From the NCBI GenBank assembly GCA_903906305.1, contig CAIVJR010000005.1, positions 162,113 through 226,112 of the forward strand: a DNA stretch of 64,000 bases. The letters run 5' to 3'. Made by a program: the position numbers and the translations under genes. This DNA is from an uncultured bacterium. GTDB taxonomy: Bacteria > Patescibacteriota > Dojkabacteria > SC72. The notes under the pieces are model-generated. The model was not told the origin of the DNA and ran no database searches. It saw nothing but the letters and a program-made list of their open reading frames with translations. This document shows positions 7,899 through 32,442 of this stretch, one piece after another (position 1 is the first letter of the stretch; each line of letters starts with the position of its first letter).

Positions 7899-7911
7899 TC
7901 ATAATCGATTA

Positions 7912-7988
7912 TGGTGGGCGCACCAAGGATCGAACTTGGGACCTCAGTCTTATCAGGACTGTGCTCTAACCAGCTGAGCTATACGCCC
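7912..7988 (-). tRNA. tRNA-Ile (anticodon GAU), CCA encoded
   Basis: Reverse complement GGGCGTATAGCTCAGCTGGTTAGAGCACAGTCCTGATAAGACTGAGGTCCCAAGTTCGATCCTTGGTGCGCCCACCA; anticodon loop CTGATAA. Confidence 0.9.
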
Positions 7989-8065
7989 ATCGATTCGCTC
8001 TCATATTATTAAAAGAACTAGCTCTTGAAAGCTAAAAAGTGATAGGAAGATCTAGGTTACTCCTT

Positions 8066-9616
<1,551 letters not shown>

Positions 9617-9917
9617 AAAACGCTTGACTTTGCAATTTGCCGAAGCAAAAAGACCAACCAGCGATTGTTGGATTTGATTTTTTTGACTAAATGAATTGTG
9701 TGACCAAATCACACGATATTTAAAAAGCCTAATTGTTTTAGACTTCCTATCACTCTTCAACTTTTAAGGAGCTGAATGTGGTAATAAAACGAAGATAAAA
9801 ATATTTCACGAACTGCAGGTATTCGTTAGAGCTATTCTCTAAGAGGATTCCCGTATCTCCTTTAGTATCCCAAACTCGTGAAAGGATTCTAACACAGGAA
9901 AAGTAGATATGCAAGTA

Positions 9918-19479: not shown

Positions 19480-19926
19480 CTAAACTCCCTGGATTAAAAG
19501 TTCACCCCATTGTTCAAGAACTGACTTCTCACTTTCTACTGGTTTTTCGCTTAATATCCCATCCAATCTCTCCTTAGCAGTAGTTAATAATCCCTCAGGT
19601 ATAACAAAGACAAGATCTTTATTCCCGGAAAAATTCAACCTATCCCTAGCCTCTACTTCAATATATTCAGGAGATTGCATATTTTGTAATTGAGTAGCCA
19701 ATGTAAGATTGGTAACCCTTAATTTCTCTACTTCCAATCTAGCATTCTTAAGAATATCAACCTTCTGAACAGTAATATCTATGGAGTGAGTAACATTGTA
19801 GAGAAGAAAAGCAGAAATGAGTATAAACCCTACTTTAACAAAGGAATTACTGAACAAGGCAGGTGCAATTGTATTCTTCACCTCTCTACGAGGCATACCA
19901 TTAGATCTGTATGATACTTTATCCAT
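19480..19926 (-). CDS. Septum formation initiator family protein (FtsB/DivIC-like)
   Basis: Single TM, coiled coil, and C-terminal SPEYIEVEARDRLNFSGNKDLVFVIPE matching the DivIC/FtsB conserved C-terminal motif. Confidence 0.65.
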   Translation of the reverse strand: MDKVSYRSNGMPRREVKNTIAPALFSNSFVKVGFILISAFLLYNVTHSIDITVQKVDILKNARLEVEKLRVTNLTLATQLQNMQSPEYIEVEARDRLNFSGNKDLVFVIPEGLLTTAKERLDGILSEKPVESEKSVLEQWGELLIQGV

Positions 19927-20066: not shown

Positions 20067-20954
20067 GTGGGAGCAATCAATAATCCAAATTTTGAGGAAA
20101 AAAGAAATAAGTTTATAGGTGATTTAAGATCTAAAGGTAGGTCTGAAGCAACTGTTATAGCCTATGCTAAGGATATTGAACAACTTTTGAACTTTTTCTC
20201 TAAAGAAGGATGCACTACCATTGAAGCAACAAGCATTGAGGACTTAGAAAAGTACAAACAGTCTCTACAGGACAACAACTATACACCAAAGAGTATTTCA
20301 AGAAAGATAAATAGTACTAGAACATTCTATAGATATCTTATAGACAACTCTATAATCTCTGATAATCCTTCTGAGAAATTAGCTCATCCAAAGTTTGAGA
20401 CCAAACCTCCAAGAGTTTTAACAGAGATGGAATATAGAGCATTGAGAGATGTTAGTAGAATTGATATTAGACTCTACTCTATCGTTGAAGTATTACTTCA
20501 AACTGGTATTAGAATTGGTGAATTAGCAGCACTTTCATTAGAAGATATTAGAAAATCTAAGGATGGTAAGATTGATTACCTCTACATTAAAGCAGCTGGT
20601 AGTCATCCATTCCGAAAGGTTCCTTTAAACAAATCCGCTAAGAAAGCTATTGATGAATATTTAGATGTTAGACCTGAGACTGAGGATGATACATTATTTG
20701 TTACTAAGAATGGGAGACCTTTGTTAGTAAGAAATATTAGAACAGCTATAGATAAGGCTTTTGAAAGAGGTGGTATTAAGAATGCTAAGGTTAATGACTT
20801 AAGAAATACCTTTATTGCTCACCACCTTTCTAATGGTGTTAGCTTAGTAGTTGTTTCTAAATTGGTTGGTCACAAGAGACTTTCTACTACTGAGAAGTAT
20901 CTTAATCTTGTTAAGATGCAAAAAGAAGAGCAAAAGAATCTTAAGGAGTTATAA
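20067..20954 (+). CDS. Tyrosine site-specific recombinase, XerC/XerD-like
   Basis: N-terminal SAM-like domain. C-terminal catalytic residues R (…TGIRIGELAAL…), HxxR (…AHHLSNG…GHKRLSTT) and Y (EKYLNL). Confidence 0.8.
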   Translation: MGAINNPNFEEKRNKFIGDLRSKGRSEATVIAYAKDIEQLLNFFSKEGCTTIEATSIEDLEKYKQSLQDNNYTPKSISRKINSTRTFYRYLIDNSIISDNPSEKLAHPKFETKPPRVLTEMEYRALRDVSRIDIRLYSIVEVLLQTGIRIGELAALSLEDIRKSKDGKIDYLYIKAAGSHPFRKVPLNKSAKKAIDEYLDVRPETEDDTLFVTKNGRPLLVRNIRTAIDKAFERGGIKNAKVNDLRNTFIAHHLSNGVSLVVVSKLVGHKRLSTTEKYLNLVKMQKEEQKNLKEL

Positions 20955-21084: not shown

Positions 21085-22038
21085 CTATTTTAGGGTATTG
21101 TTCAACACTCTATACCAGTTCTTGTACAAGAATTTCTCTACAGACTCTCTTGGATACCTAGTTAAAAGGAACTTTTCCAAACCAGACATTATTGAAATAT
21201 CTGTATAACCTTCTAGAAAAGGATATTCTGGTAATGGATAAATATCGGAGGTAAACGATACATAATCATCCCCCCACTTATCAACAACATAATCTAGGTG
21301 TTTTACAAGATCTTCAAAGCTTCCATTTGGTCCTGTATCTTCTGCTAATGGGAATAATGATATTAATCCTCCCCTATCAACAACTATCTGAATTTCCTCA
21401 TCAAGCATCTCATGTTTACAATTCCAAACTGAACGGACGTTACTGTGTGTATTAACAATCATTCCATTGAAGTATTTATCTGCATCTTTAACAGAATTTT
21501 CACTTAGATGGGCTAAATCTATTATTACAGGAGATTTACTCATTTCGCGAAGAAGTTCTTTTCCTAAATCACTCAGGCCGCTATCAATCTTACTTTGTCT
21601 AGAACATGCATATTTATTTGTAAAATCCCAAGTCAATCCGTAACTTATAACTCCCTTTTTGTAGAATTCGTAAAAATCATCTATGCTATCAATACACTCC
21701 AACCCTTCTATACTAAAAAAATATCCTGTCTTATCTATTGGCTTTTCAATCAAGCTCTTCTTGTCTTTAATTTGATACAGTTTATCTGTCTTACTAATAA
21801 TATTTTCATAAAAAGCATAGAAATCATTTACACCATCCTTGTATGTGGTTTTAAGGAAACTTTCGTCAAAATAAAGACTGAATCCTGCAATATCTATTTC
21901 GGAATCTTGTAATTTTTTTAATGTCACAGGAGGTTTTGTATTATCGCTAAGAAAATCTTCAACAGAATAATTCCATAGCTTGTACATATCAGCGATATCT
22001 ATATGAGAATCTATTTTCTTCATAACAAAATATATCAT
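21085..22038 (-). CDS. Membrane dipeptidase (peptidase family M19 / renal dipeptidase-like)
   Basis: N-terminal IDSHIDIA (metal-binding H-x-D). …LTWDFTNKYA…, …VIIDLAHLSE…, and C-terminal …VEKFLYKNWYRVL match M19 motifs. Confidence 0.65.
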   Translation of the reverse strand: MIYFVMKKIDSHIDIADMYKLWNYSVEDFLSDNTKPPVTLKKLQDSEIDIAGFSLYFDESFLKTTYKDGVNDFYAFYENIISKTDKLYQIKDKKSLIEKPIDKTGYFFSIEGLECIDSIDDFYEFYKKGVISYGLTWDFTNKYACSRQSKIDSGLSDLGKELLREMSKSPVIIDLAHLSENSVKDADKYFNGMIVNTHSNVRSVWNCKHEMLDEEIQIVVDRGGLISLFPLAEDTGPNGSFEDLVKHLDYVVDKWGDDYVSFTSDIYPLPEYPFLEGYTDISIMSGLEKFLLTRYPRESVEKFLYKNWYRVLNNTLK

Positions 22039-22077
22039 AAATGTTACTTAGCCGGAACCATTTGAGGAATGAAAATA

Positions 22078-22150
22078 TGGGAGTAGATGGAATCGGACCA
22101 TCGACCACGGCTTTATAAGAACCGCGCTCTACCAACTGAGCTATACTCCC
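22078..22150 (-). tRNA. tRNA-Ile with anticodon UAU (reads AUA); CCA not encoded; T-loop TCCGATT (C at position 55)
   Basis: Reverse complement GGGAGTATAGCTCAGTTGGTAGAGCGCGGTTCTTATAAAGCCGTGGTCGATGGTCCGATTCCATCTACTCCCA. Clean cloverleaf with anticodon loop CTTATAA. Confidence 0.7.
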
Positions 22151-22202
22151 ATGTAAAGTAGCCTATTCTATCAAAATAAGGATGATTTTAGAAGATGTAC
22201 CC

Positions 22203-24731
22203 TTAGAATCCCATTGGTGGGAAAGGAGAATTCACAGGATTAGGCTCAGGTTTCCTATCCAATTGTGACCTAATCTTAATATCCTCATTAATCACAGCCA
22301 CATCCCTACCATACTTAGCTCTAGAATACTTCTTAATGATATCTGCAACCTCCTTATGTTCTGGTAAATTGAAACCACTCTCCGGATACTTTGATCCATA
22401 TGAAGAATCCAAAGAAAAAGGAGCTGGATATATACCATCATTAAGAAGCTTAGTATACCAATGGCTAGATCCCTGATTCACCATATCTCCAGCTTTAATA
22501 TATGGTTCAAATTGTGTTTCGAGGAATTTCGCATCCTCAGCACTACATCTAGCAATGAATAGTGAACCCACATTTCCAAATACTGCATTCCTAATATCCT
22601 CTGGTAATTGCCCAATATATTGGTGTGCAATGGTTAAATCCAATCGATATTTTCTAGCTTCAGACAATATTGAAGAAAACTCTTCTGTAGCAAAGTTTTG
22701 GAACTCATCAGCATAGAAGAAGAAATCTTTCCTCTGACCCTCTGGGATATTCTCCCTACTCAGTGCAGCTGCTAACATCTTTTGAACTAAGAGTAAGCCA
22801 ATGAAGGACATATTATCCTCACCTATGGAACCCTTGGAAAGATTAATAATCAATATCTTCTGGTTATCCATAATATCTCTAAAATCAAAGGAAGACTTAG
22901 ATTGACCAATAATATTCCTTACTGCTAAGTTAGTTGTAAATTTATCAAACTTCGAAATGAAGTATGTTAAAGATTCAGACTTTGTTTTCTTATCCGTCTT
23001 AGCAACCTGATCAGTCCAATATCTTCTTACTAATTCATCCTTAACCTGAGGTAACCAATAGCTCATTACCCATTCCTCATCTTGCAACATTCTAACAACC
23101 TCTATCAATGTAGAACCTTCCTTGGACATAGCCGTAAGCATAGAGTTTCTGACAGCCTGTTGCATAGCTGGGCCTACATAACCCTGATTATGTGGGTCAA
23201 AGAGTCTTATGAGCAACGCAATGAAGCTATTAACGATCTGATGCTTATGCTGCTCATTGTAGAATTCCATTATATTAAGACCAAATGGTCTTTCAAAATC
23301 ACCTGCATTAAAATAGATGACATCTTCAGCTCTTTCAGGAGGAATTAGTTCTAAAATATCTTCAGCAGCTTGTCCGTGAGGATCAATGAAACAAACACCA
23401 TCCCCATTATATATATCCTGCAAAATCATTCGTTTCATCAACCAAGATTTACCAGTACCAGTTTGTCCTAGGATATATGAGTGGCGTCTCCTATCATCAC
23501 GTTTAAAACAGATTGTTTTTTTCTTCCCTCTAAAGATGTTATTCCCTATCCATATCGTATCCTTAGATTTGATATCTGAGCTAATGGAGTTATCCGCTAT
23601 GAATTCTCTTGAGAGTAGCCAGTGAATGTTAGGTGTTGATACATTTTTATTTGGGAAATGATACAAAGCAGCGAGCTCTTCAACATTAAATACTGATTCT
23701 GGATATTCCGGCGTTCTTCTATATACTACGTCATATATGAATTTCTTTTCGTCTTTCTTCTCTACTTTTACCTTCTTAAGCTTGTTAATCCCTGGATTAC
23801 TGTATTGATCAAAGGCGCCAATGATATTGTCCAAATGCATTTTAGCTATTGCCTGATCAGGAGCACTGGTGATAATTCTAATCTCTCCCATTAAACCTGG
23901 TTTTGCAACCTTCTTCCCTATGCCCTGAAGTTTTTCTTGAGATATACTAATTTTCTTCTTCTCCGGATCTGAATTATTGCTTTCAATCTTTTGAACAAAC
24001 TTAGATCCATTTTTTTGCCACTTAGAATCTGTAGGGGTGACTATCAATTGTACAATCACGCCTTCATTATCAGAGATCTTACTTAAAGTACTAAGTACAT
24101 TTGCTAAAGGATCCCCTGTAAAGTTTTCTGCAACTCTTAGTGGTGCATACGAGTCATCATCGAGTATCAATCTTGCATACGCAGACTCAGTATGTGGAGC
24201 AAATATGTTGTATTCATTTACAGTTGTAACATCAGCGTCTTGGTATGATCCTAGGATTTGTTTTTCAACGAGATCTGCTAATTTCTTTGGACAATGCACA
24301 AAGAATCGTATTTCTCCTGGTAATCCAACCATTTCAAAACTTACAGCATTTCCAACAGTAAAATGTTCTGCTAAGCCATCCCCTTTTCCTCCAATACCAC
24401 ATATATTTGCAAACATTTGTTCTGCAACCCCTATTTCCACCTCATTGTCTCTTGGTAATCTTACTTCCATCAATACTCCATCATTGGCTTTTTCGTTCCT
24501 ATCTTTGTGTACTAATTTTTTTTTAACAATGAAATATGCCCCTACGCAGGCACCTATTACAACAAGAAAAAGGCTTATCCATCCCCATGGGATATCTATG
24601 GTTTTACCACCATAGAGGTCAGTGTATGTATCTTTGGGATATGTAACATTCGATCCAGTCTCAACCTTGGTATTACTTTTACTTGGTGTAGGCCCTATTA
24701 CTTGTGAGTATGTGAATTCATCAGAATTCAT
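22203..24731 (-). CDS. Membrane-anchored P-loop ATPase of the T4SS coupling-protein / VirB4-TraC-like (FtsK-HerA superfamily, AAA_10/TraG-D_C-like) type
   Basis: 842 aa. TM at about aa 52-70. Walker A ILGQTGTGKSWL followed by FIDPHGQ. Walker B FFFYADEFQNF. Downstream TIAHQYIGQL resembles the conserved Q-x-x-QL of T4CPs (VirD4/TrwB/TraD). Confidence 0.55.
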   Translation of the reverse strand: MNSDEFTYSQVIGPTPSKSNTKVETGSNVTYPKDTYTDLYGGKTIDIPWGWISLFLVVIGACVGAYFIVKKKLVHKDRNEKANDGVLMEVRLPRDNEVEIGVAEQMFANICGIGGKGDGLAEHFTVGNAVSFEMVGLPGEIRFFVHCPKKLADLVEKQILGSYQDADVTTVNEYNIFAPHTESAYARLILDDDSYAPLRVAENFTGDPLANVLSTLSKISDNEGVIVQLIVTPTDSKWQKNGSKFVQKIESNNSDPEKKKISISQEKLQGIGKKVAKPGLMGEIRIITSAPDQAIAKMHLDNIIGAFDQYSNPGINKLKKVKVEKKDEKKFIYDVVYRRTPEYPESVFNVEELAALYHFPNKNVSTPNIHWLLSREFIADNSISSDIKSKDTIWIGNNIFRGKKKTICFKRDDRRRHSYILGQTGTGKSWLMKRMILQDIYNGDGVCFIDPHGQAAEDILELIPPERAEDVIYFNAGDFERPFGLNIMEFYNEQHKHQIVNSFIALLIRLFDPHNQGYVGPAMQQAVRNSMLTAMSKEGSTLIEVVRMLQDEEWVMSYWLPQVKDELVRRYWTDQVAKTDKKTKSESLTYFISKFDKFTTNLAVRNIIGQSKSSFDFRDIMDNQKILIINLSKGSIGEDNMSFIGLLLVQKMLAAALSRENIPEGQRKDFFFYADEFQNFATEEFSSILSEARKYRLDLTIAHQYIGQLPEDIRNAVFGNVGSLFIARCSAEDAKFLETQFEPYIKAGDMVNQGSSHWYTKLLNDGIYPAPFSLDSSYGSKYPESGFNLPEHKEVADIIKKYSRAKYGRDVAVINEDIKIRSQLDRKPEPNPVNSPFPPMGF

Positions 24732-24794: not shown

Positions 24795-25121
24795 TTAAGC
24801 TGCTATCGATGGAATATCTTTCCCATTCAGCTTATCAAACATTATTTCTAATCTAACATCATTAGGGATCTCTCTTAAAGCAACTTGTGGCCCTGCAGAG
24901 ATCTTTTGTTCGTTATTTGGTATATCCTTCTGCTCATTATTATCTAATTGGGTTTCAGAGTTGTCATTTTGATTTGCCTCAGAAGATTCAACTTCTACTA
25001 CTGGAATTGAAGACTGATTCTCCAATGTTCTAGTAGATGGAAGTAACTCAACAGGAACAGTATTTACTTCTGTCCTTATTGCTGGCTCAAATTCTGTTGT
25101 AGGTGTGTTAATGCTCATCAT
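24795..25121 (-). CDS. Hypothetical low-complexity (Q/N/E-rich) protein
   Basis: 108 aa ORF with compositional bias and no motif. Confidence 0.3.
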   Translation of the reverse strand: MMSINTPTTEFEPAIRTEVNTVPVELLPSTRTLENQSSIPVVEVESSEANQNDNSETQLDNNEQKDIPNNEQKISAGPQVALREIPNDVRLEIMFDKLNGKDIPSIAA

Positions 25122-25133: not shown

Positions 25134-25577
25134 TTATATCACATACTTTCTATTTTCAATATGTAATTCCCTATCCAAATCTCTTTCCTTGTCCCTGTCA
25201 CGTTTTTCATGGTATTTCCTACCCTTAGCCAACCCTACCTCTACCTTAATCATACCTCTAACAGTATACAGGCTAACAGGTATTAAAGTTAAATTCCCTT
25301 GTTTCATCTTACTTTCTAATTTATTCAATTGATCTCTATTTATCAATAGCTTTTTTGATCTGGCAGAATCATAGTTCTTGTCAGTTGCAAACTGGTATTT
25401 AGGGATATCCGCATTAACAAGCCATAGCTCGTTATTTATAACCTTAACATACGCGTCACCAATGTTAGCTCTCCCAGATTTAATAGATTTTACTTCAGCA
25501 CCAGTTAAAACTACTCCAGCTTCAAATGATTCAAGAATTTCATAGTTAAAAGATGCTTTTTTGTTAACAATTTTCAT
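25134..25577 (-). CDS. smpB: SsrA-binding protein SmpB
   Basis: …FNYEILESFEAGVVLTGAEVKSIKSGRANIGDAYVKV…LLINRDQLNKL… and a basic C-terminal tail. Confidence 0.9.
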   Translation of the reverse strand: MKIVNKKASFNYEILESFEAGVVLTGAEVKSIKSGRANIGDAYVKVINNELWLVNADIPKYQFATDKNYDSARSKKLLINRDQLNKLESKMKQGNLTLIPVSLYTVRGMIKVEVGLAKGRKYHEKRDRDKERDLDRELHIENRKYVI

Positions 25578-25584: not shown

Positions 25585-27894
25585 TTATAACATGACCTTC
25601 CATATTACTGACCCATCAAGAATATACATTGAGGAGTTGGCAGAATCTACGACAAAGTCTTTCACATTATTCCACACTCCTTCTTTTTCTCCCCTGTACA
25701 CATACTGCTTCTTTAGAACTACTTCGTTAGGATGCAATATATCTCCCCCACCCTCTTGAGGTTTCTCGAAGTTAATAAATCGCTTGTTAGTTTTATCAAA
25801 TACGAAGAGTCCATCATCCAAACTACTTCTAGTAAAGCCTTTTGTTAATTCTCCTAAATCACCATTTACTCCGGTAATCGTCAACGGATTTTCAGCCTGT
25901 TTTTGTTCGGCATAGTTGTAGCTATACCTAATTAATTGTGGCATATCCTTTGTTAAAACATATACACTTAAATCTGCAAGAATATCACTGGCATTAGCCA
26001 ATCTATCATCTGGAATATATTTGTAATACAATCCATACCTATTCTCATATGAAAATACGGATTTCAATACTGCGTTATCATCTTGATCGACAAGATATAC
26101 ATTGTCTGATTCTGTAAGGATAATGAATTCACTAATATTCTTTGTTTTAATGTTTTCTCTGGCCAATCCTGAGAGCGCAACAAATGTTCCAAACCACTTC
26201 TCTGTATCAAAGGATGCTTTGATTACACCCGTTTTATTATCAAATACAAACACGCCCCCATTTCCCATTGATACATACTCAGGATCTTTAAGAAGTCCGT
26301 CAGTATCTACCAATCTTTGAGATGTTTTGTCATACAAAGATACCCTAAACACAGCATTCAATCCCTTGTCCGTAACTAAGAGGTATTCATTTCCAGAATC
26401 ATCCGAATATATCTCGATATCTGTAGGATTAGAGCTATCCCCAAATGATAATCTGGAATCAGCAAAAGTCGTTACTTTACCATTTGAATCGCTAACCCCT
26501 ACTCGTTTGTACAAAGTATCTTCTACAACCAAAATTCTAAAATCTAGACCATTTTTGATTACTAAATCTTTTTCTGATATGTTAGCTGGGACTTCTTTTA
26601 ATGCATTCTTTGCCTGATATATGGCTACTTCTGCAGTATTTTTGTCTGATGTAGACATATTTTCAGCTTTCTTTACTAAGGTCTCAGTATTTGTAAAAAT
26701 TTGACTTGCCTGATTATGTACAATGCTTGCTCTTCGAGCTTTGATTGTGAAATTGATTCCCAATGCTAATACAACAATTACAATTACAACCATAAGGACT
26801 AATCGTATTCTTTTTACTCGAGTATCTCTAGTTCTGTATCCATCAATTCTCATACCCTTTCCATTGAAATTGGGTCTGTTAATTTTAACTGTTGAAAGTT
26901 GAGAAGCTGCTTTTTTAAACCATTTTTTGTTGCCATATAGCTCGGTAAATCTTACTGCTATTTTTTTTGACAAAAGTGATATCTTTTCAGCTACTTTACG
27001 GGTAGCTTTAACTATCCAATTTTTAATTTTTACAAATATTGGTTTTATTTTTTCTAAATATACGCCCACTCTCCTGAAACTTGCTTTAGCCATTAAAAGC
27101 TGAACCTCTCGTTTTTCAAACGGCATTCTGTTTACACTAGAAACTTTTTCAGGTTCTTTCATAGCTGGAATTTCCTCTTGTTTAGGCTCAATAACTGGTT
27201 CTTTTTTTAGTATCGGCATATGGAATTGTGGTGCAAGAGGTTTGGTTTTAATTTGATTTTCATCTTCATATGCAAAAAATACTAACCCCTGAGTCCCAGA
27301 AAGCGTCTTCCCAATCTCTTTAAGCTCAGCAATAACTGGCTCTGCTGATGTTAGTTTGCCTAATTCTCCTAATGTTTTAGATATTACACCCATGGTAGAT
27401 ACTATTAGGATATCCCCTTCTTCTAGAGCAACACCTGCTGTACTTGCTTTGCTCTTCCCCAATATCTCCGTAATATTTACAAATTTTCCACTTTTGAAAA
27501 CAAAGACTTCGTTTTCTCCTAAGTTACCAATATACAAACCCTCTTTCTTCTGGGCTACCAATACGAAATTTACGTTGATTCCCAAATCTTCTAAGGATTT
27601 ATCATTTTTCATAAGGTTTTGAAGTTTCCTTACACCCTCTGTAATGCCATCTTTGAGAGATTCATTAGTGCTTTGTGTGGATGAATATATATATCCATCT
27701 AAGATTCCATCCCATACAAACTTACTTACTCTCTCTGCGGGTAATGAGGTATTTCCAAAGATTGAAAGAAGGCAGTAGATATCTCCTTCTTTTTCAGTTT
27801 TTTTTGTAGAATTTTCGGAAAAATGTTTTAAGATGGTAACAAAAGTACCTTTCTCCCTATTGTTCGAGATGAACTGTTGAGCAGTAATTTTCAT
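25585..27894 (-). CDS. Large single-pass membrane protein. The N-terminal cytoplasmic domain is about 370 aa; a TM follows; the C-terminal extracytoplasmic domain is about 380 aa, probably beta-rich. Hypothetical.
   Basis: 769 aa. Central TM LVLMVVIVIVVLALGINFTI. No catalytic motif recognised. Confidence 0.45.
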   Translation of the reverse strand: MKITAQQFISNNREKGTFVTILKHFSENSTKKTEKEGDIYCLLSIFGNTSLPAERVSKFVWDGILDGYIYSSTQSTNESLKDGITEGVRKLQNLMKNDKSLEDLGINVNFVLVAQKKEGLYIGNLGENEVFVFKSGKFVNITEILGKSKASTAGVALEEGDILIVSTMGVISKTLGELGKLTSAEPVIAELKEIGKTLSGTQGLVFFAYEDENQIKTKPLAPQFHMPILKKEPVIEPKQEEIPAMKEPEKVSSVNRMPFEKREVQLLMAKASFRRVGVYLEKIKPIFVKIKNWIVKATRKVAEKISLLSKKIAVRFTELYGNKKWFKKAASQLSTVKINRPNFNGKGMRIDGYRTRDTRVKRIRLVLMVVIVIVVLALGINFTIKARRASIVHNQASQIFTNTETLVKKAENMSTSDKNTAEVAIYQAKNALKEVPANISEKDLVIKNGLDFRILVVEDTLYKRVGVSDSNGKVTTFADSRLSFGDSSNPTDIEIYSDDSGNEYLLVTDKGLNAVFRVSLYDKTSQRLVDTDGLLKDPEYVSMGNGGVFVFDNKTGVIKASFDTEKWFGTFVALSGLARENIKTKNISEFIILTESDNVYLVDQDDNAVLKSVFSYENRYGLYYKYIPDDRLANASDILADLSVYVLTKDMPQLIRYSYNYAEQKQAENPLTITGVNGDLGELTKGFTRSSLDDGLFVFDKTNKRFINFEKPQEGGGDILHPNEVVLKKQYVYRGEKEGVWNNVKDFVVDSANSSMYILDGSVIWKVML

Positions 27895-27896: not shown

Positions 27897-28169
27897 TTAT
27901 CCAACTAAAAGAAATAGTACAGCGATTATGCTACCTATTATTGTTGTGATGAGATATATGGTGATTATTATTTTGATAATACCGATGCTTGAAGATTCGA
28001 ATGTATCTGCTAGGATTCTGGATCTCAAGAATAACAATGCTGCAAAGAGAACATTTCCAAAGAGGATTAGTACTAATGGGAATTTTAAGAGAGTTGCAAC
28101 ATTAACAGAGAGTCCTCCCAGTGGATTCTTTCCTAAATTGTCTAACATATTGTTTACATCATTATTCAT
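27897..28169 (-). CDS. Small membrane protein (2-3 TM), hypothetical
   Basis: 90 aa hydrophobic ORF, with start/stop overlap coupling to its neighbours. Confidence 0.35.
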   Translation of the reverse strand: MNNDVNNMLDNLGKNPLGGLSVNVATLLKFPLVLILFGNVLFAALLFLRSRILADTFESSSIGIIKIIITIYLITTIIGSIIAVLFLLVG

Positions 28170-28789
28170 TATATTTCTCCGCTTTCTTTAGATTCTAATA
28201 GATCAGACAGTATCTCTTGGACATCCCTTGGTCTTGGAATGTTTGTAAATTCAATATTTTGATTTGAGCCTGCGGTCTGTACATATACAGTACCTACATC
28301 GAATATACTTCCAAGTAATCCGAGTTGTTTCTGAGTTACATCTTCTATATGTTCTAACTGTGTTTCAGACATTGTATGTGCCATTATATTTGGGAAATCG
28401 AGATCTACTACTCTCTGATCGGTAATCATATCTACATTGTAATACCACTTAACAATTGCAGATACTAATATGCTTCCACCAGTTAACAATGAGGTTATGA
28501 GGAGCGAGAGGAATATGATAACACTTTTGAAAATAACTGGGGCTATTGCTCCTAATACCCATGGTAAAACCAAAACTAATATTGCTAAAAGTATTTGTGG
28601 TACATATACAATCCAGTGGGATCTAATTATTAATATAACCTGCTCTTCTTGTTCTTGTCCGTGGAATTTCAATCCCTTTGGAAAAGAATTGAAGGAATGA
28701 TCATTTCTAAGAGTAATATTGTCCATAAAGGATCTTTTCAGATTCCTAAACTTCTTTGGTATTTTGTTTGATTCTTCTTTAGTAGTCAT
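28169..28789 (-). CDS. Membrane protein with bacterial PH domain (bPH_2/YdbS-YdbT-like)
   Basis: Two TM helices, followed by …YYNVDMITDQRVVDLDF…GTVYVQTAG…IEFTNIPRPRDVQEIL, typical of bPH_2/DUF304. Confidence 0.5.
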   Translation of the reverse strand: MTTKEESNKIPKKFRNLKRSFMDNITLRNDHSFNSFPKGLKFHGQEQEEQVILIIRSHWIVYVPQILLAILVLVLPWVLGAIAPVIFKSVIIFLSLLITSLLTGGSILVSAIVKWYYNVDMITDQRVVDLDFPNIMAHTMSETQLEHIEDVTQKQLGLLGSIFDVGTVYVQTAGSNQNIEFTNIPRPRDVQEILSDLLESKESGEI

Positions 28790-28836: not shown

Positions 28837-30684
28837 TTATTTGTATTCTACATTCACATTAATAAAGCTATTTTGTGGAATACTTAAATAGCTTGGGGCC
28901 CTCATATTATATATTGCCTTGAAATCTGCACCTGACATGGAGACTATTCCCCTATTTGTATTAAACGATATAGATGTTGTCGTTCCATTAGAATTTGCAG
29001 ATACGGCGCTATATACTGCCGTAACTGGATTTGAAACCAAGTTTCTAAGCTCTGTCATACTGTATGGGTTTGCAGATTGTCCCCAGCATCTATATACATC
29101 TGTAGATACAATTCTTGGATCACTCGAAGTTTTTCCATTACTAATCCAAAGTAAATATGCATTTAATATATCTGCCATTTCAGCATTAGATAACCATGGT
29201 GTATGTCCACAATCACTTCCGCTTGTTGCATAACCCTTTCTAAACCATGTTTTGTAGAACCAGCTTACACCAGAGATACTTTCCCAAGCGTTAGCTGTCC
29301 AGTTTGTATAGTCACCCGTTCCTGTGGTCGTATCCCAGCCCATTCCGTTACCCCATCCTCCATGTACTGCTGCATATTGAGCAGAGAATACTTTTCCTGC
29401 AGAATCAGTAAGCACAACTCCTCTTGTAGCTCGCACTGCCTCCGCCCATGCACCCGTCTTTTGTCCACCACCAATTACCTGACAAGATTCTGTTGTACAA
29501 ATTGAAGATTGTCCATTACTTGTATAGTTGATCGCAAATGTTCTGGCAATTATCACTTGAGCTTTCAACGCTTGCATATCCCAACTTTCTGGCATCTCGT
29601 TAAGCCTTAGTAGGTAATCATCTTCAAAGTTGAGCGTTCCGTATGTTGTTGTAGAAATATTTGTCATAATTGCTTCACTTGCTCCTGAAGATTTATTAAT
29701 GATAGTACCAGTTCTAAAGGTCTTCCCTGGATAGTAAGCTGCTAAGATTTGCTCATATGTTTGACCAGCCTCAGCCCTTGCTCTTGCACCCCATTGACTC
29801 ATACCATTTCTATGGGTATATGCACCAAATGCGAATACTGCAAAAGATCCGCCTGGAGCGGTACTTCTAAAATATGCTAATGAAGATGCAGGGTCAGAGG
29901 AACTATTAGGAACAGTATTTGCATCAATAATTGTTCCCCCAGATTTAGCAACTATCAAGAATTGTTGCAGTTGTGAAATTTCTTTAGACAAATTTCCAAT
30001 CGTTTTTGTTAGACTATTTTTAGTGGAATATTGATTATTTAACTCCGCTTGCAATTTCGATTTCTCTGCAGCTAACAATGCATACGAATCATCCATATCC
30101 TTCTTTTGAGCATCTAACGTAGCTTTCTGAGTCTCTAATTCTGCCCTACTTTCAGCTAAGCTACTAAATTCTCCATTAATAGCTTCTACTTCATTCTTTA
30201 ATGTAGAAATACTATTTTGTTTCAAAAAGAATTCTTTAACCAAGGTATCCCAATCATTTCCAGACAAAAAGAATGTTGCCATTCTATATCTAGACCTTAT
30301 ATATAAATCCGTAGAAAGTTTATCCATCTCTGTTTTCTTTGACTCCAGCAATGCTTGTTTATCCTCTATCTCCTTTATCTTTGTATTCAATGCTCCATCC
30401 GTCTGTGCAATACTGTCATTCAACTTAGTAATCTCAGCATTAATTAAGGCAATTTTCTGACTTACCGAGTTATTACTTCCGCTAATCTCCTTTATCTTTG
30501 CCTCTATACTTGAAAGTGTTGTTTGTTTTGCTGCCAATTCAGCATTTTTTTGATCTATCTGTTGTTGTAAATCAGATGCTTCATCTGAATATATTGGGTG
30601 TGTAAACAAAGAAAAGGTATATGTACTTAATACGAGAACTAAAAGAAGTTGTAACAAAATTCGGGGCTTTTTGACCATACCCAA
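28837..30684 (-). CDS. SpoIID/LytB-domain protein with signal peptide and about 250-aa N-terminal coiled coil
   Basis: …GMSQWGARARAEAGQTYEQILAAYYPG… and …EMPESWDMQALKAQVIIARTFA…CTTESCQVIGG…SAQYAAVHGGW match SpoIID/LytB motifs. The N-terminal region is heptad-rich. Confidence 0.7.
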   Translation of the reverse strand: MGMVKKPRILLQLLLVLVLSTYTFSLFTHPIYSDEASDLQQQIDQKNAELAAKQTTLSSIEAKIKEISGSNNSVSQKIALINAEITKLNDSIAQTDGALNTKIKEIEDKQALLESKKTEMDKLSTDLYIRSRYRMATFFLSGNDWDTLVKEFFLKQNSISTLKNEVEAINGEFSSLAESRAELETQKATLDAQKKDMDDSYALLAAEKSKLQAELNNQYSTKNSLTKTIGNLSKEISQLQQFLIVAKSGGTIIDANTVPNSSSDPASSLAYFRSTAPGGSFAVFAFGAYTHRNGMSQWGARARAEAGQTYEQILAAYYPGKTFRTGTIINKSSGASEAIMTNISTTTYGTLNFEDDYLLRLNEMPESWDMQALKAQVIIARTFAINYTSNGQSSICTTESCQVIGGGQKTGAWAEAVRATRGVVLTDSAGKVFSAQYAAVHGGWGNGMGWDTTTGTGDYTNWTANAWESISGVSWFYKTWFRKGYATSGSDCGHTPWLSNAEMADILNAYLLWISNGKTSSDPRIVSTDVYRCWGQSANPYSMTELRNLVSNPVTAVYSAVSANSNGTTTSISFNTNRGIVSMSGADFKAIYNMRAPSYLSIPQNSFINVNVEYK

Positions 30685-30711: not shown

Positions 30712-31059
30712 TTATGCTAGGAAATCAGTCAATGTAGAGACGATTAAAGCTGCAACAAGGACAAATATCAGGCCAATTATAGCCCAAGTTAGTGTCCCTT
30801 GTGCCTGCTTTACCTTGGCAGGATCTCCAGCAGATGCAATCCATGTATAGCCACCTATTATTACAAATACAACACAGACAATTCCTGCGATAGGGAAAAT
30901 TAACTTCGTTACGCTATCAATGACATTATCAATACCACTAAAGGTAGGAGGTTGGACAGGATCACTGTCTACTCCGCCAATTGGATCTACGCCTGCAAAT
31001 ACTGGAGAAGCTACAAAAAAAGATATCAATGCAAAAAATATTTTATTTATTATTTTCAT
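30712..31059 (-). CDS. VirB2/TrbC-like T4SS pilin family protein, paralog 1 (signal peptide ...VFA)
   Basis: C-terminal …GGYTWIASAGDPAKVKQAQGTLTWAIIGLIFVLVA; shared motif G[YF]x[YWF]IxSAGDxxKVxxAxxTLxxAIIGLVxVFxA. Confidence 0.6.
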   Translation of the reverse strand: MKIINKIFFALISFFVASPVFAGVDPIGGVDSDPVQPPTFSGIDNVIDSVTKLIFPIAGIVCVVFVIIGGYTWIASAGDPAKVKQAQGTLTWAIIGLIFVLVAALIVSTLTDFLA

Positions 31060-31331
31060 TATGCTTTTAATATTGTATTAATAACAAATCTTATAACTGT
31101 TGGAGCAGCAAACACAAGCACCAACCCTACTATTGAATATATCAAAGAACTTGTTGCTGCCTTTATCTTCTTTTCATCTCCAAATGAAAGCATATACCTA
31201 AATCCTGATAATACCAAAGATACTACTGCTACTACTGCAGATATTGTGATTGCGTAATTGATAACGAAATACAGAAAATCTTGCAGATTCTCGAAGCTTG
31301 TACCATTTAAAAGATCAAGATTGACTATCAT
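31059..31331 (-). CDS. VirB2/TrbC-like T4SS pilin family protein, paralog 2
   Basis: …SGFRYMLSFGDEKKIKAATSSLIYSIVGLVLVFAA; same family motif, more divergent. Confidence 0.55.
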   Translation of the reverse strand: MIVNLDLLNGTSFENLQDFLYFVINYAITISAVVAVVSLVLSGFRYMLSFGDEKKIKAATSSLIYSIVGLVLVFAAPTVIRFVINTILKA

Positions 31332-31374
31332 ATCTTTGCAGAAGATTTAAGTTTGGTTAATTAAAAAGTAGAAA

Positions 31375-31731
31375 CTACTTAATAATATTTCCAATTACAA
31401 ATTTGACTAACAAAACTGCAACGAAACATACAACTAAACCAATTATTGCAAATGTTAGAGTCTTTGTTGCGCTTTCAACCTTGTTTTCATCACCAGCTGC
31501 AGTTATATATTTGTAGCCACTTACTACTAATATAACAACACAGAGTAATGCTGCAATTCCAATTGCCCAGTTGATAATACCGTAAATCATAGACATCAAA
31601 TCTGTTTGTCCAGTACCACCATTGATACTATTCAAATATGTATCAACAGAGTCTGCTGCATAAACAGTCGAAGTTAAGAACAAGCCTGAAACCACTGAAG
31701 CTGCGGTTGCTAATGTTTTTGTAGTCTTCAT
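31375..31731 (-). CDS. VirB2/TrbC-like T4SS pilin family protein, paralog 3 (signal peptide ...VYAADS)
   Basis: …SGYKYITAAGDENKVESATKTLTFAIIGLVVCFVA. Confidence 0.6.
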   Translation of the reverse strand: MKTTKTLATAASVVSGLFLTSTVYAADSVDTYLNSINGGTGQTDLMSMIYGIINWAIGIAALLCVVILVVSGYKYITAAGDENKVESATKTLTFAIIGLVVCFVAVLLVKFVIGNIIK

Positions 31732-31793
31732 AGAACGATTAAATATATTAATTTATGTACCAATTATATAAAAAGCAGACGGAACATGCAATA

Positions 31794-32105
31794 CTACTGT
31801 CCAGATATTACGCCCAATACATATTGCACTAAAATTTTTGCAACAAACACAATTACCATTCCTATTATTGCAGCGCTTAATGTTTTTGTCGCTTTCTCAA
31901 CCTTATCCGCATCCCCTGCCGAAGTTATGAATGTATATCCTGCAACAACCAACATAATGACAGCTACAACTGCAGAAAATATAACAAAGAAGTTAATCGC
32001 TGTAACTACTTTTCCATAGATCAAAGTATCAGGTGTACTATACTGACTACTTGAAACCCATGTTGTAAAATTCGAGATATCAACTGCTGCTAATATTCTA
32101 TCCAT
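31794..32105 (-). CDS. VirB2/TrbC-like T4SS pilin family protein, paralog 4
   Basis: …AGYTFITSAGDADKVEKATKTLSAAIIGMVIVFVA. Confidence 0.6.
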   Translation of the reverse strand: MDRILAAVDISNFTTWVSSSQYSTPDTLIYGKVVTAINFFVIFSAVVAVIMLVVAGYTFITSAGDADKVEKATKTLSAAIIGMVIVFVAKILVQYVLGVISGQ

Positions 32106-32442
32106 ATATGTCTAACCCTAAGGTATTAGAAATTAATAATAGTATTGCTACACATAGCAATATAACAACAAAACCAATAATTGCATTTGTAATAACCTGC
32201 TTCGCTTCCTGAAGCTTATCTGGGTCTCCTTTGCTAGACATCATCATAAATCCACCATAGACCAACAAAAGCACTACTGCGATTACTGCAATCGGTGTAG
32301 CAATGTTTATTATCATCTGAACAACAGTTTGATCCGTTGCGCCATCTTTCTGTATTGTTGCCAATTCATCATTCAAAGTAGAACCTAAAGACGCATACGC
32401 TTTGTGAACGACTAAATTATTTACTGTTTCTACAATATTCAT
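32098..32442 (-). CDS. VirB2/TrbC-like T4SS pilin family protein, paralog 5 (overlaps paralog 4 by 8 nt)
   Basis: …YGGFMMMSSKGDPDKLQEAKQVITNAIIGFVVILL. Confidence 0.55.
   Translation of the reverse strand: MNIVETVNNLVVHKAYASLGSTLNDELATIQKDGATDQTVVQMIINIATPIAVIAVVLLLVYGGFMMMSSKGDPDKLQEAKQVITNAIIGFVVILLCVAILLLISNTLGLDIYG

Follow-up and report, generated by a model that had tools for sequence, protein, structure and literature searches.

The window, a 64-kb stretch of DNA that was analysed as a whole, belongs to a member of the Dojkabacteria (WS6), within the Patescibacteria/CPR. It carries a complete gene for a large membrane-anchored ATPase, which a sequence-only reading of the same DNA had placed at 22203..24731; we found the ORF exactly so, and the four motifs quoted in that reading were all verified in the translation. 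The gene is flanked by housekeeping genes, and its GC content and skew are the same as those of its surroundings. The features of the locus are as follows.

20067..20954, plus strand: XerC/D-type tyrosine recombinase (Pfam Phage_integrase and Phage_int_SAM_1)
22077..22151, minus strand: tRNA-Ile(UAU), directly downstream of the ATPase gene (ARAGORN, Rfam)
22203..24731, minus strand: complete ATPase gene, ATG start, 842 aa, DUF8128-type, T4CP-like (ORF listing)
22257..22379, minus strand: two-helix C-terminal tail with the conserved motif 'YSRAKYGR', residues ~785-825
22392..23531, minus strand: T4CP-type (TrwB/VirD4-like) nucleotide-binding domain, residues 401-780 (Pfam, PDB profile search, Foldseek)
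22605-22634, minus strand: TIAHQYIGQL, the Q-x3-Q sensor box, residues 700-709
22692-22724, minus strand: Walker B, FFFYADEFQNF, residues 670-680
22866..23255, minus strand: all-helical insertion of eight helices, residues 493-622 (DSSP of the AF2 model)
23370-23390, minus strand: FIDPHGQ, the IDPxG strand, residues 448-454
23445-23468, minus strand: Walker A, GQTGTGKS, residues 422-429
23532..24482, minus strand: DUF8128 domain, two alpha/beta subdomains with a predicted VirB4-N-terminal-domain-like fold, residues 84-400 (AF2 and Foldseek)
23649-23678, minus strand: conserved 'EELA..HFPN' junction motif ending the DUF8128 domain, residues 352-361
24525..24587, minus strand: single TM helix WGWISLFLVVIGACVGAYFIV, residues 49-69 (sequence, position check)
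24795..25121, minus strand: 108-aa ORF upstream of the ATPase gene, with a 63-bp gap
30712..32442, minus strand: array of T4SS pilin genes, five in number and VirB2-like, on the strand of the ATPase gene and ~6 kb upstream of it

The full-length AF2 model of the ATPase has a mean pLDDT of 86.4. Its first 48 residues are predicted to be disordered and extracytoplasmic (residues 1-44 fall at pLDDT <50), and the TM helix forms the start of one long modelled helix (49-83). Because the basic stretch KKKLVHKDRNEK follows directly after the TM helix, the topology is predicted to be N-out/C-in. Nearly all of 59 aligned homologues likewise have a lone TM helix at the N-terminus, in line with the earlier description of a single-TM ATPase of the T4SS superfamily. 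In the motor, the all-helical insertion sits between Walker A and Walker B and corresponds, in the model, to the all-alpha domain of T4CPs. The C-terminal tail is modelled at high pLDDT as two helices (793-807 and 811-822) and has the consensus 'LSRxKYGR' across the family. Pfam gives no match to this tail, which is not an FtsK gamma domain. Nine motor residues (G422, G427, K428, D450, G453, D675, E676, Q704 and Q708) are invariant in the 59 homologues, down to 30% identity, as is H358 in the junction motif. With Walker A, Walker B and sensor residues intact, the protein is predicted to be an active enzyme.

The motor domain was assigned through several comparisons. The window protein passed the Pfam cutoffs for T4SS-DNA_transf (PF02534, 25.4 bits against 20.1), TrwB_AAD_bind (PF10412, 24.3 against 20.5, spanning residues 406-725) and DUF87 (35.2 against 23.2), the last being a model common to the HerA/VirB4/T4CP group, so that its match is not HerA-specific. 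Among the 59 family members, TraG-D_C was matched by 58 and TrwB_AAD_bind by 57, compared with 17 for AAA_10 and 11, all weak, for FtsK_SpoIIIE (PF01580). A PDB profile search returned DotL first (1.5e-7) and TrwB second (3.9e-7), with HerA lower, and Foldseek aligned the model to TrwB with an E of 4e-13 and a target-normalised TM of 0.62 (range 0.58-0.63). Against the family profile, the highest scores came from T4CPs of an Embleya plasmid (385 bits) and a Bacillus plasmid (276) and from a haloarchaeal T4CP-like protein (212). TrwB scored 31, followed by Embleya VirB4 (21.9), YjgR (10.7), TcpA (10.6), E. coli FtsK (6.2), TcpF (2.7), TraC (0.2) and TrwK (-1.9).

Other families were considered for the motor and rejected. 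A VirB4-type ATPase domain falls below the cutoffs (AAA_10, 21.1 bits against 27.5; NF045971, 23.4 against 325), as does HerA (NF040819, 13 bits against 970); the N-terminal domain, moreover, matches VirB4 rather than HerA, and there is no NurA in the 64-kb window. The FIDPHGQ strand had been taken for a VirB4/HerA signature, an assignment that we abandoned after finding that it aligns with 'IVDPNGD' of TrwB and with DotL. FtsK/SpoIIIE, the placement against which the sequence-only reading had set its assignment, was rejected as well: Pfam matches neither PF01580 nor a gamma domain in the window protein, which has a single TM helix and an FtsK score of 6.2 bits. The protein also lies below the NCBIfam cutoffs for TraD (TIGR03743, 39.3 against 366; TIGR03754, 26.3 against 647) and for the CD1115 VirD4-like family (NF045973, 38.7 against 250). 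We consider it very likely that the ATPase is a type IV coupling-protein (T4CP, VirD4/TrwB/TraG superfamily), the Patescibacteria version of the monoderm-type T4CP.

The stretch separating the TM helix from the P-loop had been described as having no obvious relatives, which proved wrong. Pfam scanning of the window protein gave no match to PF26449 (DUF8128), yet precomputed annotation places this domain in all 120 of the 120 closest homologues (68-92% identity), and a 69%-identical protein is named 'DUF8128 domain-containing protein' in UniRef. To judge from the annotation of its homologues, the window ATPase very probably belongs to the same family. DUF8128 relatives were also detectable on plasmids of Actinobacteria, Bacillus and haloarchaea, as well as in phages of Bacillus. 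Modelled separately, the domain reached a pLDDT of 87 and a pTM of 0.85; its top 12 Foldseek matches in the PDB were all TrwK/VirB4 (E 1.6e-7 to 5.5e-5, TMq 0.42-0.50), and these were the sole PDB matches at E<1e-4. The full-length model aligned along all of TrwK (~890 columns, E 5e-16). HHalign comparison of DUF8128 with N-terminal half-sequences gave no signal for a Bacillus VirB4 or for TraC; the corresponding half of the T4CP from the Embleya plasmid was matched with a probability of 98.3% (E 1.5e-14). A confident model thus points to a VirB4-N-terminal-domain-like fold for DUF8128, at a TM of 0.42-0.50. TrwK is thus the best Foldseek match for the full-length model and for the N-terminal domain alone, and the sequence profile points to T4CP. 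The suggested VirD4/VirB4 chimera survives in altered form: the mixture is real because the DUF8128 region matches the VirB4 (TrwK) N-terminal domain, but it lies in the domain architecture and not in the motifs, the motor being wholly T4CP-like by sequence.

Proteins with the same full-length architecture were found in conjugation clusters on two plasmids (BLASTP 28% identity over residues 347-808, E 9e-53). On the Embleya plasmid NZ_CP108778.1, the order is TrbL_4, PrgI, VirB4-like, DUF8128-type T4CP (WP_331738717.1, 812 aa), Replic_Relax and NlpC/P60; on the B. subtilis plasmid NZ_OX419581.1, it is T4CP (WP_144625398.1, 913 aa), Replic_Relax, TcpC/D/E and VirB4-like. These clusters are complete, with VirB4, PrgI/TcpE, TrbL/TcpC-type and Replic_Relax components, whereas the window gene has no such neighbours. 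The context of these homologues shows that a DUF8128-type T4CP serves as the coupling ATPase in Actinobacteria and Bacillus plasmid conjugation clusters, and the DUF8128-type T4CPs are thus a subfamily used in monoderm conjugative elements too. To our knowledge, none of the plasmid proteins has been studied experimentally. Relatives of the ATPase were also seen in 18 IMG/VR contigs.

Compared with TrwB (R388), VirD4 and DotL, the ATPase likewise has a P-loop motor that is anchored in the membrane and carries an all-helical insert, and it shows their motif order of Walker A, 'IDPxG', Walker B, 'Q..Q'. It differs in having one TM helix instead of the canonical two, in the extra ~320-aa DUF8128 domain ahead of the motor, in its very low sequence similarity to TrwB (31 bits on the family profile), and in being a chromosomal, vertically inherited core gene without adjoining relaxase or T4SS genes. 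With VirB4 (TrwK) it shares the two-part plan of an alpha/beta domain at the N-terminus and a RecA-like ATPase at the C-terminus, but sequence comparison detects no relationship (TrwK -1.9, TraC 0.2 and TcpF 2.7 bits). Unlike the ATPase, VirB4 lacks its own TM helix, and relatives of the ATPase occur alongside a separate VirB4. FtsK, SpoIIIE and TcpA belong with it to a superfamily of membrane-anchored, ring-shaped pumping ATPases, and the nearby Xer recalls the FtsK-XerCD partnership; the ATPase is set apart from them by the missing FtsK_SpoIIIE Pfam match and gamma domain and by its one TM helix.

The family is large and taxonomically broad. The closest homologue of the ATPase, from WS6/Dojkabacteria, is 92% identical; a word-index search returned 1,844 homologues, and 4,715 clusters at 50% identity matched at E<=1e-30 (20,195 at E<=1e-3). 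Across the CPR classes, at least 599 species genomes contained relatives. Judged from these alignments, conservation of the ORF and its motifs goes far beyond chance. Identity to the ATPase was 74-75% at Dojkabacteria-type loci, ~42-46% at Microgenomatia-type loci, 39-40% in WWE3 and 34-37% at Parcubacteria-type loci, declining in the order of the taxonomic groups and so giving the pattern expected under vertical inheritance. NCBI annotates family members as T4SS coupling-protein-like. The family is already catalogued in Pfam and NCBI annotation, and the window gene is an ordinary, well-conserved member. According to a 2025 report, nearly all Patescibacteria genomes encode T4CP homologues at a distance from virB4, typically as one 't4cp1' match per genome, with only 148 of 5,713 near virB4 (PMC12102498). 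The 't4cp1' proteins of that study, by Quinonero-Coronel et al., are almost certainly the same proteins as the present family; the study did not describe how the protein is built from domains, that its N-terminal domain is VirB4-like, that relatives exist on plasmids and in phages, or which neighbours are conserved. The suspicion that the protein belongs to a distinct T4SS ATPase clade was therefore right in so far as the DUF8128-type T4CPs form a subfamily, though not an undiscovered one, given Pfam, NCBI and the 2025 report.

We then examined the genes around the ATPase at related loci. When essentially every ORF of >=200 aa in the 64-kb window was scanned with Pfam, no relaxase appeared, as had been claimed, and no VirB4 or VirB6 was found in the window. 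A Replic_Relax homologue was observed at 0 of 84 CPR loci, and a VirB4-like gene within 10 kb of the ATPase at 1 of 81 related loci. Downstream, tRNA-Ile(UAU) lies between the ATPase gene and a convergent Xer recombinase, which is followed by divIC; the tRNA holds this position just past the ATPase at almost every Dojkabacteria and Microgenomatia locus that we examined. Xer was the commonest conserved neighbour, seen at 24 of ~81 loci; these all come from Dojkabacteria or Microgenomatia and usually have DivIC next to Xer. The gene divIC (ftsB-like) was near the ATPase in 19 loci. This neighbourhood spans Dojkabacteria, Daviesbacteria, Levybacteria, Woesebacteria, Collierbacteria and Shapirobacteria. 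We regard the Xer recombinase as syntenic context and claim no functional partnership. At Parcubacteria-type loci, the conserved neighbour is dnaX. Upstream, Pfam T4SS_pilin (PF18895) is matched by four of the five pilin ORFs (1.1e-15 to 1.6e-9), of which three also give weaker TrbC/VirB2 matches, and the fifth (31059..31331) was assigned through sequence clustering with the others, a pilin HMM match and ORF inspection. Pilins near the ATPase were seen only in seven Dojkabacteria-like loci.

The ATPase gene has been domesticated, since it is chromosomal, shows taxonomy-ordered identity, is nearly universal in Patescibacteria, has no relaxase and usually lies far from virB4. On its role, we hold with about as much belief as doubt that it is a domesticated T4CP acting as the substrate-receiving motor of this lineage's relaxase-less, pilus-bearing T4SS, with the VirB4-like N-terminal domain as a docking module. 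By analogy with the family, six subunits would form a membrane-anchored ring that would spend ATP on drawing a polymer through its central channel and passing it on to a channel in the membrane. Nucleic acid would be the most plausible substrate, with unfolded protein as the alternative, and the N-terminal domain would dock onto VirB3/VirB4-type inner-membrane components. The five pilin genes 6 kb upstream count for a link to the T4SS; the lack of VirB4, VirB6 and relaxase genes in the window, the single VirB4-like neighbour among 81 related loci and the confinement of nearby pilins to Dojkabacteria-type loci count against it. We modestly favour such a link over a T4SS-independent role. Patescibacteria account for much of bacterial diversity and take building blocks from host cells, and their T4SS is essential in the one species in which this was tested. 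In them the ATPase would be a second motor, present in nearly every genome yet unlinked from T4SS genes and lacking a relaxase, and its role, be it T4SS feeding, nucleic-acid import or chromosome handling, would help explain their lifestyle. The predicted VirB4-like fold of DUF8128, together with the coupling role of the same architecture in actinobacterial and Bacillus elements, yields a concrete docking hypothesis, and the fold and plasmid relatives also bear on the divergence of VirB4 and coupling proteins. The published placement of the Patescibacteria T4SS within the monoderm MPF-FATA class also counts for the T4SS link, and against it count the rarity of T4CP homologues near virB4 and the report that in S. 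epibionticum the T4CP homologue is non-essential while T4SS genes are essential (PMC12102498). Four Microgenomatia genomes with a t4cp1 match but scored without VirB4 count against it too.

Several other roles were weighed against this one. T4CPs and FtsK are related ring translocases, and the ATPase could be a T4SS-independent, FtsK-like septal translocase working with the neighbouring Xer in Dojkabacteria and Microgenomatia, which we consider possible but unlikely. It would then pump chromosomal DNA and help dimer resolution, possibly replacing a missing FtsK. Convergent Xer and divIC form the most conserved neighbourhood, dnaX adjoins the gene in Parcubacteria-type loci, and the reported non-essentiality fits a role in dimer resolution. 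The ATPase is also kept where VirB4 is not scored: four Microgenomatia genomes listed as 'no VirB4' in published tables still have a t4cp1 match. In a sample of published Tables S1 and S3, in which many genomes are near-identical Woesebacteria, the FtsK/TcpA-like 't4cp2' was present in 1 of 15 Microgenomatia and 12 of 17 Paceibacteria genomes, while 't4cp1' was present in 15 of the 15 Microgenomatia; 't4cp2' is, however, no dedicated FtsK detector. The Xer/divIC synteny is limited to one related group of classes and so may be merely inherited gene order, Xer lies on the opposite strand from the ATPase and is therefore not in the same operon, and the ATPase has no gamma/KOPS-reading domain and only noise-level similarity to the FtsK profile. 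An import motor, pulling host DNA or RNA through a T4SS/pilus conduit as nutrition, seems to us improbable. Patescibacteria cannot synthesise nucleotides, the absence of a relaxase makes it unlikely that the cell exports its own DNA, and the ATPase is weakly similar to the archaeal DNA-import ATPase CedD (NCBIfam 1.6e-4). All of this is circumstantial. Known T4CPs drive export, and related loci have no conserved nuclease or nucleotide-salvage neighbours. In S. epibionticum, ComEC-dependent competence is dispensable and the essential T4SS has been proposed as an uptake route (PMC11665869; PMC12857230), and a 2026 preprint reported that host RNA is acquired and that T4SS pili may occur at the cell interface (10.64898/2026.06.21.733656), but the non-essential T4CP homologue argues against an indispensable feeding role. 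In a broader version, which we view as rather doubtful, DUF8128-type T4CPs would have kept an ancestral VirB4/T4CP N-terminal domain and become housekeeping translocases in Patescibacteria without a conjugative T4SS, either as an FtsK stand-in or as an importer; a conjugation motor would then have been converted to a core cellular function across a whole superphylum.

That the ATPase is the organism's VirB4 equivalent, a pilus or channel assembly ATPase of its T4SS, is very improbable. TrwK/VirB4 is the best full-length structural match, the N-terminal domain is VirB4-like, and the pilin array lies close by with no other T4SS ATPase in the window; against this, VirB4 references score at noise level, compared with 276-385 bits for T4CPs of the same architecture, and AAA_10 is under its cutoff. 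DUF8128-type T4CPs coexist with a separate VirB4 on the Embleya and Bacillus plasmids, and published tables list a separate VirB4 in Dojkabacteria and most Patescibacteria genomes, so that a Patescibacteria-clade VirB4 is likely to lie elsewhere in the genome of the window organism. A tRNA gene and a tyrosine recombinase just downstream, and relatives on plasmids, in Bacillus phages and in the IMG/VR contigs, could suggest that the ATPase gene is carried by a mobile element (ICE or prophage remnant) that integrated recently and is not a host gene. This is hardly credible and close to refuted: the block of ATPase, tRNA-Ile, Xer and DivIC is kept across several classes with identity following taxonomy, GC content and skew match the surroundings, the flanks are housekeeping genes, and the tRNA separates the ATPase from the recombinase, the two lying on opposite sides of it.

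The 108-aa ORF immediately upstream is a candidate fast-evolving partner protein of the ATPase; it had no match in Pfam, PHROG or PADLOC. Among related loci with any ORF upstream of the ATPase, most have a small co-oriented one directly adjoining it (gaps mostly -27 to +80 bp). In P0177 the DUF8128 domain is joined in one protein to the C-terminal domain of a small protein of this kind (blastp 3e-10).

The open reading frame that the sequence-only reading singled out, 22203..24731 (-), is real: it starts with ATG and encodes 842 aa, and all four motifs quoted for it were found in the protein when their positions were checked.

422-429: Walker A, GQTGTGKS
448-454: FIDPHGQ
670-680: Walker B, FFFYADEFQNF
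700-709: TIAHQYIGQL

The observation was confirmed, and its interpretation as an ATPase mixing VirD4 with VirB4/HerA signatures is partly supported. A single hydrophobic helix at residues 49-69, with a basic stretch after it, predicts an N-out/C-in anchor. Across an alignment of 59 diverse family members (A1), the Walker A Lys, the Walker B Asp-Glu, the 'DPxG' strand, and both Gln of the Q-x3-Q box are invariant, so the protein is a conserved and presumably active ATPase.

The motor domain (residues 401-780) was found to resemble type IV coupling proteins (T4CPs). The window protein passes the Pfam models DUF87 (35.2 bits), T4SS-DNA_transf (25.4), and TrwB_AAD_bind (24.3), and the VirB4-type model AAA_10 stays below its cutoff (21.1 against 27.5 bits). 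NCBIfam matches were all far under their cutoffs, the best being TraD and the CD1115 VirD4-like family. Over the 59 members, TraG-D_C was matched in 58, TrwB_AAD_bind and DUF87 in 57 each, T4SS-DNA_transf in 34, AAA_10 in 17, and FtsK_SpoIIIE in 11. The family profile searched against PDB sequences returned DotL (1.5e-7) and TrwB (3.9e-7) at the top, then HerA (6e-4), with no VirB4 or FtsK match. Reference proteins were also scored against the family profile directly.

Scores of reference proteins, taken from annotated records, against the ATPase family profile (bits)
TrwB: 31.2
Embleya VirB4: 21.9
YjgR: 10.7
TcpA: 10.6
FtsK: 6.2
TraD: 4.7
TcpF: 2.7
TraC: 0.2
TrwK: -1.9

FIDPHGQ had been taken as typical of HerA/VirB4 proteins, yet it aligns with 'VIVDPNGD' of TrwB in phmmer and is therefore no evidence for affinity to either. 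A full-length AlphaFold2 model built from the 59-sequence alignment (mean pLDDT 86.4, pTM 0.76) shows a RecA-like core with an eight-helix insertion between Walker A and Walker B (residues 493-622), the counterpart of the T4CP all-alpha domain. Foldseek aligns the modelled motor domain with TrwB (E 4e-13, target-normalised TM ~0.62). The window protein is neither an FtsK nor a HerA protein; it is a member of a known, catalogued T4CP subfamily, and the proposal of a distinct new ATPase clade falls away. A defence ATPase is poorly supported as well: the PADLOC matches were weak and partial (mad8 2e-14, HerA), and partner genes are absent.

The ~300 aa between the membrane helix and the P-loop had been described as lacking relatives, but the precomputed Pfam annotation of all close homologues places PF26449 (DUF8128; residues 84-400 of the window protein) there, although our local Pfam scan of the window protein did not report it. 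A literature search on DUF8128 returned nothing. The best PDB matches of the full-length model are R388 TrwK/VirB4 cryo-EM chains (Foldseek, E 5e-16), with ~890 aligned columns that cover both proteins end to end. To split the domains, residues 84-400 were modelled separately from a 26-sequence alignment (pLDDT 87, pTM 0.85). The top 12 PDB matches of this model were all TrwK/VirB4 (E 1.6e-7 to 5.5e-5, probability 1.0, query-normalised TM 0.42-0.50), followed by generic ferredoxin-like alpha/beta folds at E>=8e-4, and DUF8128 is thus predicted to have a VirB4-N-terminal-domain-like fold. At the profile level, HHalign of DUF8128 against the N-terminal halves of Bacillus VirB4 and F TraC found nothing, and a search of PDB sequences gave no meaningful match. 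The mixed signature therefore holds for the architecture, with its VirB4-like front half and T4CP-like motor, and not for the motifs originally cited.

Relatives with this architecture were observed on conjugative plasmids. A tblastn search with the motor domain matched 451 plasmid records, mainly from Bacillus, Streptomyces and its relatives, Clostridium, haloarchaea, and Sulfolobus, with homologues annotated as 'type IV secretion system DNA-binding domain-containing' or 'TraM recognition domain-containing'. The 812-aa homologue on Embleya plasmid NZ_CP108778.1 aligns with window protein residues 347-808 at 28% identity (E 9e-53), reaches 385 bits against the family profile with almost full coverage, and matches the DUF8128 profile with its N-terminal 400 aa (HHalign probability 98.3%, E 1.5e-14, 286 columns). 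It lies in a cluster ordered TrbL_4-like, PrgI, XF1762, VirB4-like ATPase (AAA_10/P-loop_TraG), T4CP, Replic_Relax, NlpC/P60. A 913-aa homologue on B. subtilis plasmid NZ_OX419581.1 (276 bits, both domains) directly precedes a Replic_Relax gene and then a TcpC/TcpD/TcpE/VirB4-like block. Both plasmid T4CPs share the architecture of the window protein and have a separate VirB4 alongside. Their place in conjugation clusters identifies this architecture as that of a coupling protein of monoderm conjugative elements, and the coexistence with a separate VirB4 argues against the window gene being the VirB4 equivalent, a reading that is poorly supported. The window protein is homologous to the coupling proteins of real conjugation clusters and has both a membrane anchor and intact catalytic residues.

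In haloarchaeal megaplasmids, the DUF8128 part and the T4CP-like ATPase part are two adjacent genes. One such pair, on Haladaptatus plasmid NZ_CP085328.1 (locus L088, 8911-9963 and 10048-12840), is preceded by a 1,072-aa hypothetical protein. Full-length relatives also occur in large Bacillus phages, namely phage G (gp156, Foldseek E 2e-48), JL (TM 0.68), Shanette, and CP-51; PHROG 5156 matches at 2.4e-79, and 18 IMG/VR contigs encode relatives. Two phage relatives are located as follows.

JN638751.1, 91012-93075
KC595512.2, 100173-101303

The phage JL and PBC5 records label the relative 'lipid A export ATP-binding/permease protein', a name at odds with its T4CP-like homology, and those of Shanette and CP-51 label it 'hypothetical protein'.

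A word-indexed search returned 1,844 homologues of the window ATPase, of which the best 120 share 68-92% identity; the closest among the homologues listed (92%) is from 'candidate division WS6 bacterium GW2011_GWC1_36_11'. An exhaustive search of 50%-identity representatives gave 20,195 clusters at E<=1e-3, of which 4,715 reach E<=1e-30, including some members of 1,400-2,000 aa with the ATPase at the C-terminus. Scanning one genome per species, we found at least 599 loci with a homologue. The best 80 of these came from Dojkabacteria, Daviesbacteria, Levybacteria, Woesebacteria, Curtissbacteria, Roizmanbacteria, Collierbacteria, Shapirobacteria, WWE3, Magasanikbacteria, Uhrbacteria, Falkowbacteria, Staskawiczbacteria, Portnoybacteria, Berkelbacteria, Peribacteria, and Doudnabacteria. 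Identity to the window ATPase declines from 74-75% in Dojkabacteria-type loci to ~42-46% in Microgenomatia-type, 39-40% in WWE3, and 34-37% in Parcubacteria-type loci, an order expected from vertical inheritance. Several contigs whose gene content is typical of CPR (L011-L013, L022, L024, L027, L039, L054, L070) bear the names Gammaproteobacteria, Bathyarchaeia, Limisphaerales, Methylomirabilota, or Bdellovibrionales in public records, and these implausible titles are probably taxonomic mislabels of MAGs.

The window is chromosomal DNA of the Dojkabacteria/WS6 lineage of Patescibacteria (CPR). The window gene is surrounded by an rRNA operon, tmRNA, smpB, ftsH, polA, an ATP-dependent ligase, efp, dnaA, and dnaN, and its closer neighbours are as follows.

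19480..19926 (-): divIC, after Xer
20067..20954 (+): Xer-type tyrosine recombinase, convergent with the ATPase
21085..22038: M19 dipeptidase, between tRNA-Ile(UAU) and Xer; absent there in related loci L001-L005
22077..22151 (-): tRNA-Ile(UAU), directly after the ATPase on the same strand
24795..25121 (-): small ORF upstream of the ATPase
25585..27894 (-): 769-aa single-TM protein without family match
27897..28169 (-): DUF5657 protein
28169..28789 (-): bPH_2 membrane protein
28837..30684 (-): secreted coiled-coil protein with SpoIID domain
30712..32442 (-): five divergent VirB2-like pilin genes in tandem

In Dojkabacteria the order is fixed: AddA-like helicase, five to seven VirB2-like pilin genes, SpoIID-domain protein, bPH_2 membrane protein, DUF5657, ~768-aa single-TM protein, smpB, ~100-aa ORF, and ATPase, then a Xer-type recombinase on the other strand, divIC, efp, ftsH, and polA. 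When all ORFs from 84 loci were clustered, the conserved neighbours met most often were the Xer recombinase, in 24 loci, and DivIC, in 19, both seen only in Dojkabacteria and Microgenomatia-type lineages. Parcubacteria-type loci have a 175-aa upstream ORF, a ~210-aa protein, and dnaX as recurring neighbours; further recurring neighbours are housekeeping genes (class II ribonucleotide reductase, NrdR, CysRS, RpoD). In nearly every Dojkabacteria or Microgenomatia locus examined (e.g., L001 12567-12640, L010 12329-12401, L035 12254-12328), the tRNA-Ile(UAU) directly follows the ATPase; Parcubacteria-type loci lack it at that position. The pair forms a very deep gene-tRNA synteny. A UAU anticodon for Ile is unusual in bacteria, where a lysidine-modified CAU is the norm. 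Base composition of the ATPase gene is the same as that of its flanks. A recently integrated mobile-element gene is poorly supported; the deep synteny speaks against that reading, as does the unremarkable base composition, and it was rejected.

Most loci have a small co-oriented ORF immediately upstream of the ATPase, often overlapping it or a few bases away. These ORFs (L008-L082) are low-complexity and form several families that look unrelated to one another; a C-terminal helix is conserved in each, and the families show motifs such as '..RWLAEW..R..K', '..PGVNKFFLEQEAKIKTDKI', and '..DPYVLDxLHD..'. In one family representative (P0177), residues 1-59 are the C-terminal domain of a small-ORF-type protein fused to DUF8128, replacing the TM helix. 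A promoter and terminator scan gave fewer matches than shuffled sequence and carries no information on operon structure.

Four of the five pilin ORFs were scanned against Pfam and match PF18895, three of them with weaker TrbC/VirB2 matches, and the fifth (31059..31331) was assigned from sequence clustering and a local pilin HMM. The four-gene block between the array and smpB is conserved in Dojkabacteria and may include T4SS or envelope components not yet recognised as such. Published surveys place VirB2-like pilin arrays usually near virB4; no VirB4 was found within 20 genes either side of the window array. The 64-kb window holds no relaxase, VirB4, or VirB6, which, with Pfam scans covering essentially all ORFs >=200 aa, bears out the earlier remark that no relaxase is nearby, and no Replic_Relax homologue occurs anywhere in the flanks of 84 CPR loci. 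Pilins lie within 10 kb of the ATPase only in seven Dojkabacteria-like loci, and a VirB4-like gene does so in one of 81 loci. Its match to the VirB4 of the Embleya plasmid (L032, 11480-13234 (-); E 1.6e-112) points to either recent acquisition of an actinobacterial-type element or mis-binning of the contig.

Quinonero-Coronel et al. 2025 surveyed 3,035 Patescibacteria genomes and found VirB4 in 2,417, where it forms a clade inside the monoderm MPF-FATA class and is often encoded close to dnaA/dnaN; Microgenomatia and Saccharimonadia were rich in VirB2-like pilin arrays, and relaxases were almost absent (PMC12102498). They counted 5,713 'T4CP homologues' in 2,918 genomes, only 148 of them near virB4. 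In S. epibionticum the T4CP homologue was not essential, whereas other T4SS genes were, and the authors leave room for exaptation (PMC12102498). Wang et al. 2023 described an essential S. epibionticum T4SS cluster without a recognisable coupling protein or relaxase (PMC10633639). The existence and odd genomic position of the T4CP family are therefore already published; its domain architecture, plasmid and phage relatives, and conserved neighbours were not found described in the literature. Sampled rows of Table S3 (PMC12102498) typically give one 't4cp1' row per genome, away from virB4, as we would expect if this row is the DUF8128-type family. For Paceibacteria, sampled rows of Tables S1 and S3 list the FtsK/TcpA-like 't4cp2' in 12 of 17 genomes, frequently with two copies separated by a few genes, versus 1 of 15 for Microgenomatia. 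This scarcity in Microgenomatia is a lead only, the sample being small and phylogenetically redundant and the profile not designed for FtsK detection.

By analogy with its family, the ATPase would form a hexameric ring in which ATP moves a polymer through the channel to a membrane conduit. We consider it plausible, with moderate confidence, that it is still the substrate-receiving motor of the Patescibacteria T4SS, its VirB4-like domain docking to VirB3/VirB4-type components. This is favoured because its nearest relatives do that, because those same monoderm systems gave rise to the Patescibacteria T4SS, and because the ATPase and pilin array form one co-oriented block in this genome. The main rival, a T4SS-independent role in DNA handling, appears rather unlikely to us; in its favour, the gene usually lies apart from virB4, it persists as 't4cp1' in at least four Microgenomatia genomes scored without VirB4 in the sampled rows, and Xer and divIC adjoin it exactly where 't4cp2' is nearly absent in the sampled tables. 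Recent studies of host-RNA feeding and of the essential, relaxase-less T4SS also suggest a possible role in nucleic-acid import. Beyond the VirB4-like fold of DUF8128 and an architecture common to conjugative-element T4CPs, the interest of the ATPase lies in what job a near-universal, relaxase-less coupling protein does in Patescibacteria.

Several minor observations were also made. One of the 59 members of A1 has a T4SS_pilin Pfam match (E 1.8e-5), which could reflect fusion of a pilin to the ATPase or a chance hit to a hydrophobic segment; an HMM built from the local pilins did not recover this member, and the fusion lead was dropped. Two loci carry a second, longer ATPase paralogue (L063 15669-18596, 975 aa; L083 13972-17193, 1,073 aa), two genes downstream of the first copy with rpoD in between; it resembles the actinobacterial plasmid T4CP (E ~1e-77) more closely than the first copy does. 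The window itself holds a complete 16S-tRNA-tRNA-23S-5S rRNA operon at 4283..9617 (-) and the trans-translation pair of tmRNA (39926..40339 (-)) and smpB (25134..25577 (-)), ~14 kb apart. At 53460..56584 (-), a 618-aa protein with a faint Baseplate_J match sits beside an FtsA/PilM-like actin-fold protein.
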